A stretch of 64,000 bases of DNA from Candidatus Heimdallarchaeota archaeon (GCA_019056785.1 DXJV01000005.1:1-64000), one strand, 5' to 3'; shown: positions 7,215 to 11,203, counted from the stretch's first letter. Numbers and translations: made by a program. The notes: generated by a model not told the origin, from the sequence alone.

Positions 7215-7517
7215 CTATTTATGAGTGAGTTCTAAAGGAAAGACTGTTGCAAGGGCATTGTAAATGGTTTGATTCACATAGCTGTCTGCATCAGACAAGA
7301 TTAATTCTATTACTTCTTGAAGAAGATTCCCTTCTTTGTCTCTAATTTCATCCAATCCCAAAATGGCTGAAAGTGTTGGTTCATTTGTGTGAACATACTT
7401 CCCTTCTGCTACTTTCTGATAGCCAGCACTTACTAATAATTTATGAACTCTCTCGAGGTCTTTGCGAATTTTCGGTGTTCCTATTCGAAGAATCATCGGT
7501 CTTGATATATTGGTCAT
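7215..7517 (-). CDS. Hypothetical ~100-aa protein immediately downstream of the Arf GTPase
   Basis: ATG at 7517 with GTGAGG RBS, 14 nt after the Arf stop codon. Confidence 0.7.
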   Translation of the reverse strand: MTNISRPMILRIGTPKIRKDLERVHKLLVSAGYQKVAEGKYVHTNEPTLSAILGLDEIRDKEGNLLQEVIELILSDADSYVNQTIYNALATVFPLELTHK

Positions 7518-7531
7518 TTTATCATCCTCAC

Positions 7532-8086
7532 TTAAATTTTCTCGAGTTCTATTACAATCCATTGAATAGCTTCTTCTACCCCCACTCCTTCTGTAGCAAT
7601 TGTTGGTTGGATATGCCAGCTCCGGTTTTTCATCTGTTCAGGGTCATTCAATCCCAATTTGTGAATCAATTCTTCGATTGACATCGCCCCTTCTTTATCT
7701 TGCTTGTTCGCAACGATAAGTAAAGGTGCATCAGGATACTGCGGGTCAAGCAGCACTTTCCAGAGTTCAGTTTTAGCTTCTTCAAATCGTTCTCGGTCAG
7801 CAGAATCAATCACAAAGATTATTGCACTCGAACCTTTCATCAATGTTCCCCAAAGGTTGCGAAAATGCAGCTGCCCTCCAAGATCAAAAATGCTAAGATT
7901 GACGTTTTTCCTTTTCAAGACTTCAACGTTGACTCCGATTGTTGGTAACGTTTCGATGTTTTTTTCAAATCGCAAGAAATTAAGCATGGTGGTTTTTCCT
8001 GCAGCATCTAAACCCACAACAGCAATTTTAAATTGTTTTCGTTGTCTAAAGAGTCTTGCTAAAAAGCTCAATTGTCTCGTCCTCAT
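7532..8086 (-). CDS. Arf-family small GTPase (Asgard Arf-related)
   Basis: G1 GLDAAGKTT, PTIGxNVE, DLGGQ, LW, IFVIDSADRER, ANKQD, R-S-WHIQ; N-terminal amphipathic helix (L)SFLARLF. Start may be TTG at 8071. Confidence 0.95.
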   Translation of the reverse strand: MRTRQLSFLARLFRQRKQFKIAVVGLDAAGKTTMLNFLRFEKNIETLPTIGVNVEVLKRKNVNLSIFDLGGQLHFRNLWGTLMKGSSAIIFVIDSADRERFEEAKTELWKVLLDPQYPDAPLLIVANKQDKEGAMSIEELIHKLGLNDPEQMKNRSWHIQPTIATEGVGVEEAIQWIVIELEKI

Positions 8087-8257
8087 TTCTTAGCTTTTTT
8101 ACAGAGTTTGTTTTTTCGGTTATAACAAAAGCATATAACCTTCTGTCATTAATTGTTGCTCTATGAACCCTTATTGGAATTACTGTTAATAAATCCATCT
8201 TAAGGGACATTCTTCTCCTTTTTTATCTTTTTACTTTTTAAGATAGCTCAACATTAC

Positions 8258-9007
8258 TTATACGAGATCGGCAGTGATTTCAATCGTGTCAAGTCGCTCG
8301 TCATATTTCACTATACCTTTACTGTCCAAATTCCGGATGGCTTTTAGGATGATGACCGGCGGCGTTTTTGAAACGGCTTTCTTTAGTTCTTCTAATCCCA
8401 TTGCTTGATTACGGTAGGCTAACGTTGCAAGGATGTCCACTTCAGGGATGTCTATTCGTACCTCTTTTAGGAGAAAGTCAAGTACCGGGCTAATCTTTGT
8501 ATCTTGCTCTTTTTCCTCGAGTAATTGTTGCAGAGTCTTTTGAGCATCTTGAATTCGATTGTTCATACGATTCTTAACCTCTTCTTTTTCTTGGAGTTTT
8601 GTTTTTGTGCTGTCTTTTATGGTTTGAATTTGCTGTTCTAGTGAGGATAATTCACTCTTTTTATTGTCGAGAGTTTTTACTAATTGTTCTGTTTCTTCGG
8701 TTAATTTTTGTATTTTCTCATCTTCATCATTGATAGAGAGATTAATTCGATCTATTTGCTCTTTTAATGATTCAATCTCTCGGAGGAGCCCTTTTTTCTC
8801 CTCTTCTAGTTGAAGCTCATCATTCTTCCGATTAGTGAGATTTTTCTCCAATTTCTTGAAATGCTCTTCTGTTTTGTCTAAATAGTCGATAGCTGAAGCA
8901 ATTTCTTTGACAATACCTTCAAATTTCTGTTTTAAGTTTGTATTTAAATGTTCAAGGCGTTCTTTTTCAGCAATTAAGTTTCTTTTGAGGCTTACAAAAT
9001 CAGTCAT
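8258..9007 (-). CDS. Long coiled-coil protein with C-terminal winged helix (paralogue B)
   Basis: About 170 aa of E/K/L-rich heptads, then LDFLLKE...EVDILATL...ILKAIRNLDSKGIVKYD, a wHTH pattern. Confidence 0.8.
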   Translation of the reverse strand: MTDFVSLKRNLIAEKERLEHLNTNLKQKFEGIVKEIASAIDYLDKTEEHFKKLEKNLTNRKNDELQLEEEKKGLLREIESLKEQIDRINLSINDEDEKIQKLTEETEQLVKTLDNKKSELSSLEQQIQTIKDSTKTKLQEKEEVKNRMNNRIQDAQKTLQQLLEEKEQDTKISPVLDFLLKEVRIDIPEVDILATLAYRNQAMGLEELKKAVSKTPPVIILKAIRNLDSKGIVKYDERLDTIEITADLV

Positions 9008-9022
9008 CTTATTTCATTCCTC

Positions 9023-9769
9023 CTAGATTTTCAAACTCCCAGTAAGGGTTATTGCTCCTGATGAATTGTCAAAGGTTAAAAGGTTTCTTTTCATTAACCC
9101 ATTTAAAGTGTTTACAATTAAGTCTGTTGATAGGCCGGTGACTTTTGCAATGGTCGAAAGATCCGTATTCTTTCTCCCTTCTAAAGCATTAATAATTTTA
9201 ATTTCATTAAATTCAATATAATTTTTCTTGATCAAAAATTCCAGCGCCATACGTTCTCCTTTGGATTTCCGGATAACATCCCGCTCTTTTTCAGCTTGTT
9301 GTTCAATTTCGTTAATCTTCTGCTCAGTTGTTTCTACGATGTTTTTTATTTCAGCTTGTAATTTTTGATTTGTTTCTGTTTCCGTTTCAAGCTCTTTTTT
9401 GGCTGCTTCCAGGTTCTTTTCAATAGCAGATAATTCACTTGTCAACTCTCGTTTTCTACTCTCTAATTTCGTTCGGTCATTTGTTTTCTCGGTGAACTTT
9501 TCTTGTGTTTCTCTTAACACGTCTTCATTTTTGCTTTTTTCTTCTTTTAGAGAAGTTATCTCTTGTGACAACGTTAAATTGTTGGATTCAAAATTAGCAA
9601 TTTCAGTGCTTTGTTTCCGCTCAATTTCCTGTAATTCTTGTAATGGTTGAATTAGCCCTTCCAAATTAACCTTTGAAGATTTTAGTGTTTCTGCGAGTTC
9701 TGCGATGATATCTTCAATGGTCATTCCTCCTCTTTTCAGAGCAGAGAGTATTTCAGAAATGTCACTCAT
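9023..9769 (-). CDS. Long coiled-coil protein with C-terminal winged helix (paralogue A)
   Basis: About 170-aa coiled coil, then LEFLIKK...EIKIINAL...IAKVTGLS...LNGLMKRNLLTFD wHTH; GAGGTG RBS. Confidence 0.8.
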   Translation of the reverse strand: MSDISEILSALKRGGMTIEDIIAELAETLKSSKVNLEGLIQPLQELQEIERKQSTEIANFESNNLTLSQEITSLKEEKSKNEDVLRETQEKFTEKTNDRTKLESRKRELTSELSAIEKNLEAAKKELETETETNQKLQAEIKNIVETTEQKINEIEQQAEKERDVIRKSKGERMALEFLIKKNYIEFNEIKIINALEGRKNTDLSTIAKVTGLSTDLIVNTLNGLMKRNLLTFDNSSGAITLTGSLKI

Positions 9770-9851
9770 AAATAATTAACACCTCACTAAAAGGTAAATA
9801 ATTTTACTGTGAAAAAGCTTTCGATTGTTACCTTGGTTTGCCATATTAAGT

Positions 9852-9866
9852 AAAAAAAAAGAAAAG
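9852..9866 (-). terminator. Oligo-T terminator candidate after the longin-DENN gene
   Basis: A9-GAAAAG on the + strand is a T-tract on the - strand, about 12 nt past the stop at 9878. Confidence 0.45.
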
Positions 9867-9877
9867 AATTACACATT

Positions 9878-11203
9878 CTATTCTTGCATGAAAACATTCT
9901 CAGCAACATTGTCCATAACTTGGATAATTGCCGGATTGTATTTTGCTCGAACATTTGTGATAAATTCTTCTGGCGGGAGGTTCAATTTCTTGATTTTCGC
10001 CCAATCTTTTGCCAGTTTTTCAATCAAGGTTACTCGATTTAAAAGAAGAGAGACACATTCGTCATGTTTCATTTTGGTCATTTCTTTTATCAAGTCTGCA
10101 AGATAAACTGCGTTTTCACCGTGCAGTATCTTTTTATGATCAAGGTCTAAAATAACCTCATTAGTATAATACTGGGTTAAATTGCTTTCAATACGAATAA
10201 TGTCAGCTTCCCGCGGATGAATGAATTCTTTGGCATAATTGATGATTCGCAATTCACGTTCAGGGGCGAAACACTGTAAGGTATCGAGTACCATGTTTAA
10301 TAATACTTGATTCTTATCTGTCTCAGGGTTAATGATCACTAAAACTGGTTTGCGATTAATAATTGCATTGAAGACTTTATCCAGATCTTTTTTAAATTGT
10401 TTAATGAAAAAGGGCATGTTTCCTTTATGGATGTCTCGTTTTATTGCTAAACTTTTGCGTTGTTCGGGTTGTAATGTTGAGGTTTCCGCAGTTTTTGTTG
10501 CTGGAGTTGTTATCGAAGCAGCAAGAGGTGCACTAGGTGCGGCAGTCGAAATTGGTTTTGCTTCGCCAAAAGCTTTGACAGAATAATAGACTTTATTTCC
10601 AACTTTTGTGGTATAAAGAAAACCGGCATTTAGAATTTCTTGAATGTTTGCTACTGCTTCTTGGGGTGATACATTTGTGAGTGAGATAATTTCTTCGAAT
10701 GAAGCAATTTTCTTGTCTAAAATGGCATAAGCTGTTTTTTGGAGTCTTTGTGGGAGCTCCATCACACTCAAGGTGTCAAGAACTCGTCGACTCCCCGCTT
10801 TCGTCATAATTCTATTCTCAAAAGCACTTCGTAACTGATCTAATTTCGCTTCAAAGCCCTTGAAAATTGAGGTGTCTTCTCCTTCCCATCCTAAAACGTA
10901 GTCTCTCGGAAAAACAGCATAAAAGAGGTTCTTTAATTCCGGGAGAAATATCTCCAGCAACGCTACTTCATTTTTATCAGCTGCCACTAGAAAAAGAATT
11001 GATTTATCTAGTTCGTATGCCAACTTATGCTCGCCGGAAATTTCTTCAATGCGTTGCCCTGGTAATACTTTTGCAATTAGGTTGTCAACTATTGTTTGAA
11101 AACTTCCTAATCCTTCTCCGGGCTTGGAAATGGACTCATAATTGCGATTTATCAGTGGCTTTTTGTCTTTTAAGATTATTATTCTCTTTATCACTTTTTC
11201 CAA
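9878..11203 (-). CDS. Longin - winged helix - DENN-like (folliculin-like) protein
   Basis: aa 1-125 longin pattern (IIILKDKKPLINRNY...ILFLVAADKN...FLPELKNLF); aa 141-210 wHTH; A/T/P-rich linker; aa ~262-441 resemble a cDENN/dDENN core (KVFNAIINRKPVLVI...VLDTLQCFAP...LRIINY). Confidence 0.72.
   Translation of the reverse strand: MEKVIKRIIILKDKKPLINRNYESISKPGEGLGSFQTIVDNLIAKVLPGQRIEEISGEHKLAYELDKSILFLVAADKNEVALLEIFLPELKNLFYAVFPRDYVLGWEGEDTSIFKGFEAKLDQLRSAFENRIMTKAGSRRVLDTLSVMELPQRLQKTAYAILDKKIASFEEIISLTNVSPQEAVANIQEILNAGFLYTTKVGNKVYYSVKAFGEAKPISTAAPSAPLAASITTPATKTAETSTLQPEQRKSLAIKRDIHKGNMPFFIKQFKKDLDKVFNAIINRKPVLVIINPETDKNQVLLNMVLDTLQCFAPERELRIINYAKEFIHPREADIIRIESNLTQYYTNEVILDLDHKKILHGENAVYLADLIKEMTKMKHDECVSLLLNRVTLIEKLAKDWAKIKKLNLPPEEFITNVRAKYNPAIIQVMDNVAENVFMQE

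Follow-up and report, generated by a model that had tools for sequence, protein, structure and literature searches.

In eukaryotes, longin-DENN proteins regulate small GTPases of the Arf, Rag and Rab families. Folliculin-FNIP, C9orf72-SMCR8 and the DENND1-type Rab GEFs are all built from an N-terminal longin domain and a C-terminal DENN core/helical lobe. The longins of GAP type (FLCN, SMCR8, NPRL2) carry a GP motif before strand 2 together with an Arg finger (PMC12290439). In Asgard archaea, an operon encoding a LAMTOR1-like Roadblock protein, a Rab-like GTPase and a DENN protein has been described from most lineages by Liu et al. (bioRxiv 10.1101/2020.10.19.343400), who also noted that Heimdall genomes encode FLCN-like proteins with longin and DENN domains. 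A 2025 paper in Traffic (PMC12290439) raised the question whether the clients of Heimdall FLCN-type longins are ArfR or Rag GTPases.

An archaeal Arf of known structure is GerdArfR1 (PDB 8OUN, GDP form; 8OUM, GTP form). It has been crystallised with either nucleotide and resembles Arf in both cases, and when GDP is bound its N-terminal helix is folded back on the core (Vargova et al., bioRxiv 10.1101/2024.02.28.582541). Membrane binding of GerdArfR1 in yeast needs both this helix and GTP, and is abolished upon deletion of the helix. The paper does not discuss the neighbours of the gene, and in the literature we searched on the GerdArfR1 lineage we found no description of the 100-aa gene downstream or of the DENN and coiled-coil genes upstream. 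Lastly, in the CCC part of Commander (CCDC22-CCDC93-DENND10) a DENN-fold protein stands beside two length-matched paralogous coiled-coil proteins, and a study that searched by structure recovered no homolog of either coiled-coil protein from archaea (PMC13392464).

Gene structures and transcription units

We analysed a window of 64,000 nucleotides from a Candidatus Heimdallarchaeota archaeon (GCA_019056785.1 DXJV01000005.1:1-64000). Between positions 7215 and 11203, its minus strand holds five consecutive ORFs, all of them real genes, and our ORF listing recovered the same coordinates as a first-pass annotation. In the direction of transcription these are a large longin-winged helix-DENN gene (9878-11203), the coiled-coil genes CC1 (9023..9769, 248 aa) and CC2 (8258..9007, 249 aa), an Arf gene (7532-8086) and a small gene (7215-7562). 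Three start codons were refined from ortholog alignments and Shine-Dalgarno positions. The large gene, open from a TTG at 11203 (441 aa), starts at GTG 11194 (9878..11194, 438 aa). The Arf start is most likely TTG 8071 and not the first ATG of the ORF at 8086, giving a protein of 179 aa (7532..8071; MSFLARLF...), a length also found in public gene calls. The small gene starts at ATG 7517 (7215..7517, 100 aa), 14 nt past the Arf stop. Strong purifying selection acts on each of the five genes, whose products are 52-85% identical across ~20 related contigs.

The genes are unevenly spaced, with 108 and 171 nt between units as compared to 15 nt between CC1 and CC2 and 14 nt between Arf and the small gene, and in both close pairs a Shine-Dalgarno motif precedes the second gene (GAGGATGA in the case of the small gene). 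Directly 3' of the DENN stop codon lies an oligo-T tract on the minus strand (9852..9868), which is likely an archaeal terminator. It is followed, before CC1, by a TATA-like TTAATAT (9843-9849, minus strand) and by a Shine-Dalgarno GAGGT (9781-9785, minus strand), and the T-rich tract, a TAATAT-like element and the Shine-Dalgarno motif recur in 7 aligned orthologous spacers. The CC2-Arf spacer contains a BRE/TATA-like element, AGATGGATTTATTAA (8186..8200, minus strand), likely the promoter of an Arf-small operon. This element is identical in 7/7 aligned spacers while the remaining spacer is not conserved, and it occurs once in the window compared to 0.01 times expected by chance. The predicted promoters and terminator rest on conservation of sequence; taken with the spacing, they indicate three transcription units, namely DENN, CC1-CC2 and Arf-small. 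The first-pass annotation had already pointed to separate transcription units because of gaps of 108 and 171 nt and a T-tract, and the spacing, the T-tract and the promoter-like elements all agree with that caution. The Arf-small pair, with its 14-nt gap and Shine-Dalgarno motif, looks like the sole operon-like link involving Arf.

Protein domains and the relation to GerdArfR1

The individual gene products had first been annotated as a longin/wHTH/DENN-like protein, two paralogous coiled-coil+wH proteins, an Arf-family GTPase and a closely spaced ~100-aa unknown, and all of these descriptions held up. For the large protein (441-aa numbering throughout), an AlphaFold2 model with a mean pLDDT of 75.8 agrees with the structure matches. 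The longin domain (10811..11200, minus strand; residues 2-131) shows the order beta-beta-alpha-beta-beta-beta-alpha-alpha over residues 1-131, and this predicted structure aligns in VIA-align with the longin of VAMP7 (4afi_A; Z 14.7, rmsd 2.4 A, 118 residues) and with Sec22b (1ifq_A; Z 13.4). An inserted winged-helix domain (10568..10786, minus strand; residues ~140-212) is supported by the secondary structure of the model, which places it at residues 144-208, by invariant columns and by a weak ArsR/SmtB match (E 0.026). Residues 212-250 form a Pro/Thr linker that is disordered in the model. The DENN-fold C-terminal domain (9881..10450, minus strand; residues 252-441) is modelled as an alpha/beta plus helical domain, and the prediction matches the folliculin C-terminal domain (3v42_B; Z 13.6, rmsd 3.3 A, 173 residues), DENND10 from the Commander structure (8p0v_M; Z 12.9) and a chain of the C9orf72-SMCR8 complex (7o2w_B; Z 11.2), each alignment spanning 173-176 residues. 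Again, ESM-Atlas linked this domain to Folliculin, DENND10, SMCR8 and DENND1A clusters (TM 0.66-0.79), and the best Foldseek matches of the large protein were DENND1B, FLCN and a chain of the C9orf72-SMCR8 complex.

The large protein thus has the same two lobes as the eukaryotic longin-DENN proteins, but differs from them in having a winged helix and a disordered linker in between and in giving no match at the sequence level. For the protein itself, Pfam gave nothing at E up to 1 and the PDB sequences nothing at E up to 10, and such matches as occurred among 40 relatives were all sub-threshold (Folliculin 1.3e-4, Folliculin_C 1.5e-3, C9orf72-like 3e-3). Its 42 homologs are all Asgard hypothetical proteins (identity 52-100%), and full-length matches are confined to one Heimdallarchaeial family (f1), where they occur in 11/11 genomes. 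No gene for a heterodimer partner adjoins the large gene at the locus. Judged by its predicted fold, the protein probably regulates or scaffolds a small GTPase.

CC1 consists of a heptad coiled coil of ~170 aa followed by a C-terminal MarR-like winged helix, and CC2, 15 nt downstream, is its distant paralog. Hydrophobic periodicity in both peaks at exactly 3.5 residues, and the two winged helices are homologous (hhalign probability 87%, E 4e-6; BLASTP 3e-5). The two proteins probably form an obligate heterodimer.

The identity of the Arf is clear, with Pfam PF00025 at E 3.3e-52 (176.9 bits against a curated cut-off of 22.3), intact G1-G5 motifs, and GLDAAGKTT, PTIG, DLGGQ and NKQD invariant in 10 orthologs. 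It matches PDB 8oun_A at E 1.9e-100 over residues 6-184 and belongs to the same orthogroup as GerdArfR1, an orthogroup found only in family f1; the crystallised protein comes from a different member of the family. The two are about 85% identical, counted on the alignment, and share the G motifs, the catalytic Gln and a nearly identical N-terminal helix (SFLxRLFRQ+KQ). The hydrophobic moment of this helix (0.46) was equalled by 36% of shuffles, in a crude test that was not significant. Eukaryotic Arfs have a myristoylation site at Gly2. The N-terminus here (MSFLARLF) lacks this site, as do the published ArfRs. By likeness to its ortholog, the Arf would cycle on and off membranes by means of its N-terminal helix.

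The small protein is likewise restricted to family f1, where each genome has one paralog of it. Its AlphaFold2 model is well defined (mean pLDDT 87.8) and alpha/beta (beta-alpha-beta-beta-beta-beta-alpha), and searches gave no known family, no convincing fold match and no Roadblock or longin match. From the gap and the Shine-Dalgarno motif, the small gene is predicted to be translationally coupled to Arf, and we infer that its co-translated product binds Arf and is the most likely dedicated partner of this GTPase, although co-transcription of two genes is no proof that their products bind.

Conservation of the locus and its possible readings

We consider it fairly likely that three units, transcribed separately and differing in evolutionary age, became juxtaposed at the locus and have been conserved by descent in the family of the GerdArfR1 lineage. 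The ages would differ because the full-length DENN protein, the Arf orthogroup and the small protein occur only in f1, each in 11/11 genomes, while the CC tandem pair is found in families f1-f7, i.e. class-wide. The first unit would then supply a folliculin/DENND-like longin-winged helix-DENN protein that regulates or scaffolds some small GTPase, the second a bicistronic CC1-CC2 pair that elsewhere appears independent of Arf and DENN, and the third a bicistronic GerdArfR1-type Arf with its 100-aa alpha/beta protein. What speaks against this reading is that all f1 members seem to keep the five-gene order, as a functional module would too. The order is found on one contig in eight f1 genomes, and several metagenome contigs agree; the remaining three genomes have contig breaks that are compatible with it.

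It is this adjacency and co-orientation in every f1 member that would be expected of a single Arf module, in which the DENN protein acts as GEF or GAP, CC1-CC2 as effector or tether and the small protein as cofactor, with the promoters tuning their levels. In its fold the large protein resembles FLCN, SMCR8 and DENND1B, whose targets are Rag, Arf and Rab GTPases, and the client question for Heimdall FLCN-type longins has been raised in the literature. The roles of eukaryotic longin-DENN proteins, together with the Asgard precedent of a DENN and GTPase operon, make the neighbouring Arf a reasonable DENN client. The likeness to that operon lies in a DENN-fold gene near a small GTPase gene, but the GTPase here is an Arf and not Rab-like, the small protein has no Roadblock match, the genes do not form one operon, two genes as well as promoter-like elements and a T-tract standing between DENN and Arf, and the arrangement is confined to one family. 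Moreover, the flanks in f1 (Kae1/YrdC/RadA genes and a Mo-ECF operon) are just as conserved as the five genes, so that synteny within the family, where the entire neighbourhood is syntenic, does not discriminate a module from shared descent. The sole rearrangement seen in f1 falls between CC2 and Arf, where the most divergent member (L064) has two unrelated genes, one of them on the minus strand. Outside f1, at 12 loci in 6 families, we found no Arf, DENN or small-gene profile match within ~8 kb of the CC pair, whose neighbours differ between these loci and include ABC ATPases, a radical-SAM enzyme, HSP20 and PanE. Nor does a GTPase gene adjoin either of the two paralogs that the DENN gene has in this genome, its relatives of 363 aa in family f6, or the paralogs and distant homologs of the small protein. 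As each genome has ~45 small-GTPase candidates, we estimate a probability of ~20% that, among three DENN genes, one would by chance lie no more than 2.5 kb from a GTPase.

A GAP role within such a module seems less likely from the longin domain itself. Pro16, with which strand 2 opens, hardly varies among the orthologs, but the residue before it, Gly in the GP motif, is not conserved and reads K, I, L, V, F, T or Q in the alignment columns. Alignment columns for residues 1-105, the longin beta-core, contain no invariant Arg, and the invariant Arg residues of the protein are R125, R139 and R140. As the large protein lacks a conserved Gly-Pro/Arg-finger signature, any role that it has on a GTPase would more likely be that of an exchange factor or a non-catalytic partner than that of a GAP with an Arg finger. 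In summary, the single Arf regulatory module of the first-pass annotation is supported in its parts, whereas for their integration we found no support other than adjacency; for the CC pair, gene order is not conserved beyond the family. Such a module is rather unlikely in our view.

Less probable still is that the genes are unrelated neighbours, with CC1-CC2 forming a heterodimer that binds DNA or associates with the chromosome, and with the large protein acting as a winged-helix regulator whose sensors are the longin and DENN domains. The winged helices of the CC pair resemble the DNA-binding domains of MarR, Lrp, TrmB and TFE at the profile level (E 8.8e-6 to 1e-3): a profile of 22 sequences matches MarR 3nrv_A at E 8.8e-6, and Lrs14, LrpA and TFE at 1e-4 to 1e-2. 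The individual Pfam matches of both CC proteins all fall under the cut-off, including MarR_2 for CC1 at 6.8e-5. The coiled coils match SMC and an archaea-specific SMC-related protein weakly, and the class-wide distribution of the pair among changing neighbours would suit such a role. No part of the large protein is as conserved as its winged helix (ELPQRLQ, GFLYTTKxGNKV), which is basic (pI 9.1), as is that of CC1 (pI 9.5), but the winged helix of CC2 is acidic (pI 5.0). Winged helices also often mediate protein contacts in eukaryote-like Asgard proteins such as ESCRT-II. We identified no DNA target or operator, and elsewhere the longin and DENN folds go with the control of GTPases.

An archaeal scaffold in which the DENN protein docks on CC1-CC2 as DENND10 does on CCDC22-CCDC93, possibly recruited by Arf, is very improbable, for although DENND10 is tied with folliculin among the structure matches and a DENN gene does lie beside a paralogous coiled-coil pair, the Pfam CCDC93_CC match (E 0.21) is at noise level, the pair has no neighbouring DENN gene in the six other families, archaeal CCDC22/CCDC93 homologs did not emerge from the structure-based search cited above, and the coiled-coil proteins are without detectable homology and have different terminal domains (those here carry a winged helix and lack the N-terminal domains of CCDC22/93), making the likeness an analogy only.

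Within our preferred reading of three juxtaposed units, a link of the DENN protein or the CC pair to this Arf is possible, albeit unlikely. The locus nevertheless offers testable candidate partners for GerdArfR1.

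Gene starts and predicted folds

An ORF listing of the window placed five minus-strand ORFs within 7215-11203 where the first-pass annotation had them, with gaps of 108 nt and 171 nt as described there and a T-run at 9852-9868. The MAG, in which the window belongs to contig C44, is Heimdallarchaeial, 2.87 Mb in size and 82% complete. Three of the starts were refined by ortholog alignments and Shine-Dalgarno (SD) positions. The gene for the large longin-winged helix (wH)-DENN protein (9878-11194) begins with GTG at 11194 and encodes 438 aa, the Arf gene (7532-8071) most likely begins with TTG at 8071 (179 aa, MSFLARLF...; public gene calls concur), and the small gene (7215-7517) begins with ATG at 7517 (100 aa), 14 nt past the Arf stop and with GAGGATGA ahead of it. 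In the Arf ORF, the earliest ATG coincides in part with the SD sequence (8071-8086). Because only GTG or TTG is found in the aligned orthologs at the position of 8071, Arf annotations with the ATG start carry five spurious residues before the membrane-binding helix.

The Arf protein matches Pfam Arf (3.3e-52), and its best match among solved structures is 8OUN/8OUM, over the full length (E 1.9e-100) and with approximately 85% identity as counted by hand on the printed alignment. These entries are GerdArfR1, solved as the full-length GDP-bound protein and as a truncated Q69L GTP-bound form; in yeast, it binds membranes only if GTP and its amphipathic N-terminal helix are present (bioRxiv 10.1101/2024.02.28.582541). 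The Arf studied here is therefore orthologous to a protein already characterised, which places the organism in the GerdArfR1 lineage. In our amphipathic-moment test, the Arf N-terminus was not significant. In the class (83 genomes), only one family, here called f1, has the GerdArfR1 orthogroup. Gene neighbours, operon and synteny are absent from the GerdArfR1 paper and from the Nature Communications paper on Asgard Arfs, neither of which describes a native regulator or effector of Asgard Arf GTPases; genomic context and gene clusters are likewise absent from the GerdArfR1 paper (bioRxiv 10.1101/2024.02.28.582541).

No usable sequence match to the large protein was found in Pfam, NCBIfam or PDB. 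Its 42 homologs are all Asgard hypothetical proteins (52-100% identity), a profile search of 1.84 billion representatives returned only 69 relatives, and a few of the 40 relatives scanned had sub-threshold Folliculin, Folliculin_C or C9orf72-like Pfam matches. The AlphaFold2 model (21-sequence alignment, mean pLDDT 75.8) consists of a longin-type domain at residues 1-131 (beta-beta-alpha-beta-beta-beta-alpha-alpha), a winged helix at 144-208, a disordered Pro/Thr linker at 212-250 and an alpha/beta plus helical domain at 252-441. The best Foldseek matches are full-length longin-DENN proteins, namely DENND1B (3tw8_A, E 5e-6) and chains of the FLCN-FNIP2 (6nzd_H) and C9orf72-SMCR8 (7mge_B) complexes. 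Aligned by domain, the protein matches the VAMP7 longin domain (Z 14.7, 2.4 A over 118 residues), and its residues 260-441 match the folliculin C-terminal DENN domain (Z 13.6, 3.3 A over 173 residues), DENND10 (Z 12.9) and the C9orf72-SMCR8 chain 7o2w_B (Z 11.2). Independently, residues 252-441 fall with Folliculin, DENND10, SMCR8 and DENND1A clusters in the ESM Atlas (TM 0.66-0.79). On these fold matches to longin and DENN structures, the longin-wH-DENN call of the first-pass annotation has good support from predicted structure, and by fold the protein would be a GTPase regulator or scaffold.

A GP motif and an Arg finger have been proposed as the signature of GAP-type longins, in a 2025 paper that explicitly asks which GTPases the Heimdall folliculin-type longins serve (PMC12290439). 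This signature does not appear to be clearly present in the large protein: Pro16 is conserved and the Gly before it is not, and the ortholog alignment has no invariant Arg within the longin core, Arg being invariant at 125 and in the linker KPGSRR at 135-140. Should the protein act catalytically, Pro16 and R139/R140 are candidate elements. The invariant KPGSRR (K135, G137, R139, R140; window 10784-10801) lies in a low-confidence linker leading from the longin domain to the winged helix, and such conservation is unusual for a segment modelled as disordered.

The two coiled-coil proteins, CC1 (9023-9769) and CC2 (8258-9007), both have their maximum of hydrophobic periodicity at 3.5 residues, over approximately 157 residues. 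The winged helices at their termini are homologs of one another (hhalign probability 87%, E 4e-6), with profile-level matches to MarR, Lrp and TFE domains (E 8.8e-6), and hhalign found no relationship between them and the winged helix of the large protein (probability <2%).

For the small protein, the model is confident (beta-alpha-beta-beta-beta-beta-alpha, pLDDT 87.8), and Foldseek, VIA-align and the Atlas gave no convincing structural relative. Foldseek returned no match at E up to 1e-3. The best VIA-align match, the C-terminal domain of the MoaD-related protein 1v8c (Z 8.4), is at the tool's stated noise level, as are matches with Z 7.9, 7.7 and 6.7 to residues ~764-995 of large chains in KICSTOR-GATOR1 and DEPDC5-dimer entries; in two of these three, the matched chain is presumably DEPDC5. 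The Atlas gave TM 0.57/0.63 to MoaD_arch, and no match in its feature search. We take the MoaD-related, DEPDC5-type and MoaD_arch similarities of this predicted fold as leads only. A predicted complex of Arf with the small protein, run without controls, reached 0.01 and 0.10 (mark 0.32), which speaks neither for nor against binding.

Probable transcription units and gene order

In the window, 15 nt separate CC1 from CC2 and 14 nt separate Arf from the small gene; the corresponding distances in orthologs are 10-19 nt, and the second gene of either pair has an SD. The DENN gene is followed by an oligo-T tract, a TATA-like element (9843-9849), an SD and CC1, in that order. In the CC2-Arf spacer, the 15-mer AGATGGATTTATTAA (8186-8200) is identical in 7/7 aligned loci while the spacer is otherwise variable, and it occurs once in the window (0.01 expected); a similar element, AGAAGAATTTATTA, lies upstream of the DENN gene (11246-11252). 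From these sequences we infer promoter and terminator signals between three units. All 22 sequencing runs are DNA metagenomes from sediments and hydrothermal vents. The pairing of Arf with the small protein is the only one with operonic support. A palindrome-like TCG(A/T)TATG...ATTTCGAT (11320-11350) lies in the spacer that separates the DENN gene from the divergent molybdopterin/ECF-type operon, upstream of the latter; it is kept in 7/7 aligned loci and may be the operator of that operon.

In the synteny survey that the first-pass annotation had called for, the f1 order DENN-CC1-CC2-Arf-small is kept, as far as the contigs reach, in all 10 genome loci from the DENN-profile search, with Kae1, YrdC and RadA kept downstream and the molybdopterin/ECF-type operon upstream in all but two, which begin at the DENN gene. 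As the flanking genes are kept too, the conserved order does not single out the five genes. Outside f1, the CC1-CC2 tandem persists throughout the class (f1-f7), and at 12 loci in the six other families no match to the Arf, DENN or small-protein profiles was found within approximately 8 kb of it. Its neighbours there vary by family and include ABC ATPases, a radical-SAM enzyme, HSP20, ketopantoate reductase and an arrestin-like protein. The latter adjoins the pair in one family (f2, locus L102, 6410-7255), with Arrestin_C at 2.5e-5 and Arrestin_N at 2.2e-4, both below cut-offs. The class-wide CC-wH pair, probably a heterodimer, may serve either as a scaffold or tether or in nucleic-acid binding. 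In the phylum (400 genomes), f1 alone has the full-length DENN protein and the small protein, each in 11/11 genomes. In the most divergent member (locus L064, 52% identity), two unrelated bPH_2-domain genes, one of them on the opposite strand, lie exactly between CC2 and Arf (7018-8775; 313 aa with bPH_2 and a weak wHTH, and 216 aa with bPH_2); other divergent contigs keep the canonical order.

Readings of the locus

The best reading of the locus is three units of different age that have become neighbours in one family. The integrated Arf module of the first-pass annotation, an Arf switch encoded together with its GAP or GEF and tether-like effectors, we consider unlikely. For the two further DENN-like genes of the genome, the closest GTPase match is 45-85 kb away. 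One (locus L066, 4670-8494, contig C84) encodes a 746-aa paralog that shares the longin and DENN regions; the gene immediately downstream of it belongs to the presenilin family (Pfam Presenilin 1.5e-18), and aIF5B, NDK and Top6A are also next to it; the other, a 244-aa DENN-only paralog, has genes of unknown function as neighbours. The 363-aa DENN relatives of family f6 have no small-GTPase match within 1.5 kb; at loci L024, L028 and L036 they are flanked by multi-pass membrane proteins of ~210-277 aa, not GTPases. With approximately 45 small-GTPase candidates per genome by a first-look count, our own rough estimate is that one of three DENN genes would lie within 2.5 kb of a GTPase by chance in about 20% of cases. 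The only paralog of the small protein (~100 aa, sharing an LSDAE motif; locus L063, 97-1815, on contig C49 of this genome, and locus L056) is always upstream of a ~430-aa (433-aa) Cys-rich protein, which we read, without a Pfam test, as a heterodisulfide-reductase/GlpC-like FeS enzyme; the paralog is transcribed divergently from the gene of a large membrane protein, has no GTPase adjacent to it, and lies 8.5 kb from an Arf paralog.

That the DENN protein might sit on CC1-CC2 as DENND10 docks on CCDC22-CCDC93 in the eukaryotic Commander complex is an attractive analogy with little support. The conjunction of this docking with the DENN protein as native Arf GEF or GAP and the small protein as a new Arf-binding cofactor appears very improbable.

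Asgard DENN proteins, FLCN-like longin and DENN architectures in Heimdall genomes, and a conserved operon of Roadblock, Rab-like GTPase and DENN have already been published (bioRxiv 10.1101/2020.10.19.343400). Compared with that operon, the present locus differs in its GTPase class, its inserted winged helix and its small partner, and it does not form a single operon. If the joint reading were true, the locus would encode an archaeal Arf switch together with its regulator and a scaffold of coiled coils, and with them the first set of native regulators for an Asgard Arf of known structure; since GerdArfR1 is amenable to biochemistry, an integrated module would be of importance. What is supported at present is the candidates and not the module, Arf-small being the only operonic link. 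The locus presents an ortholog of the crystallised, purifiable GerdArfR1 in an operon with a small protein and two genes from a longin-DENN protein, and hence a short candidate list for pull-down, nucleotide-exchange, hydrolysis and liposome assays.
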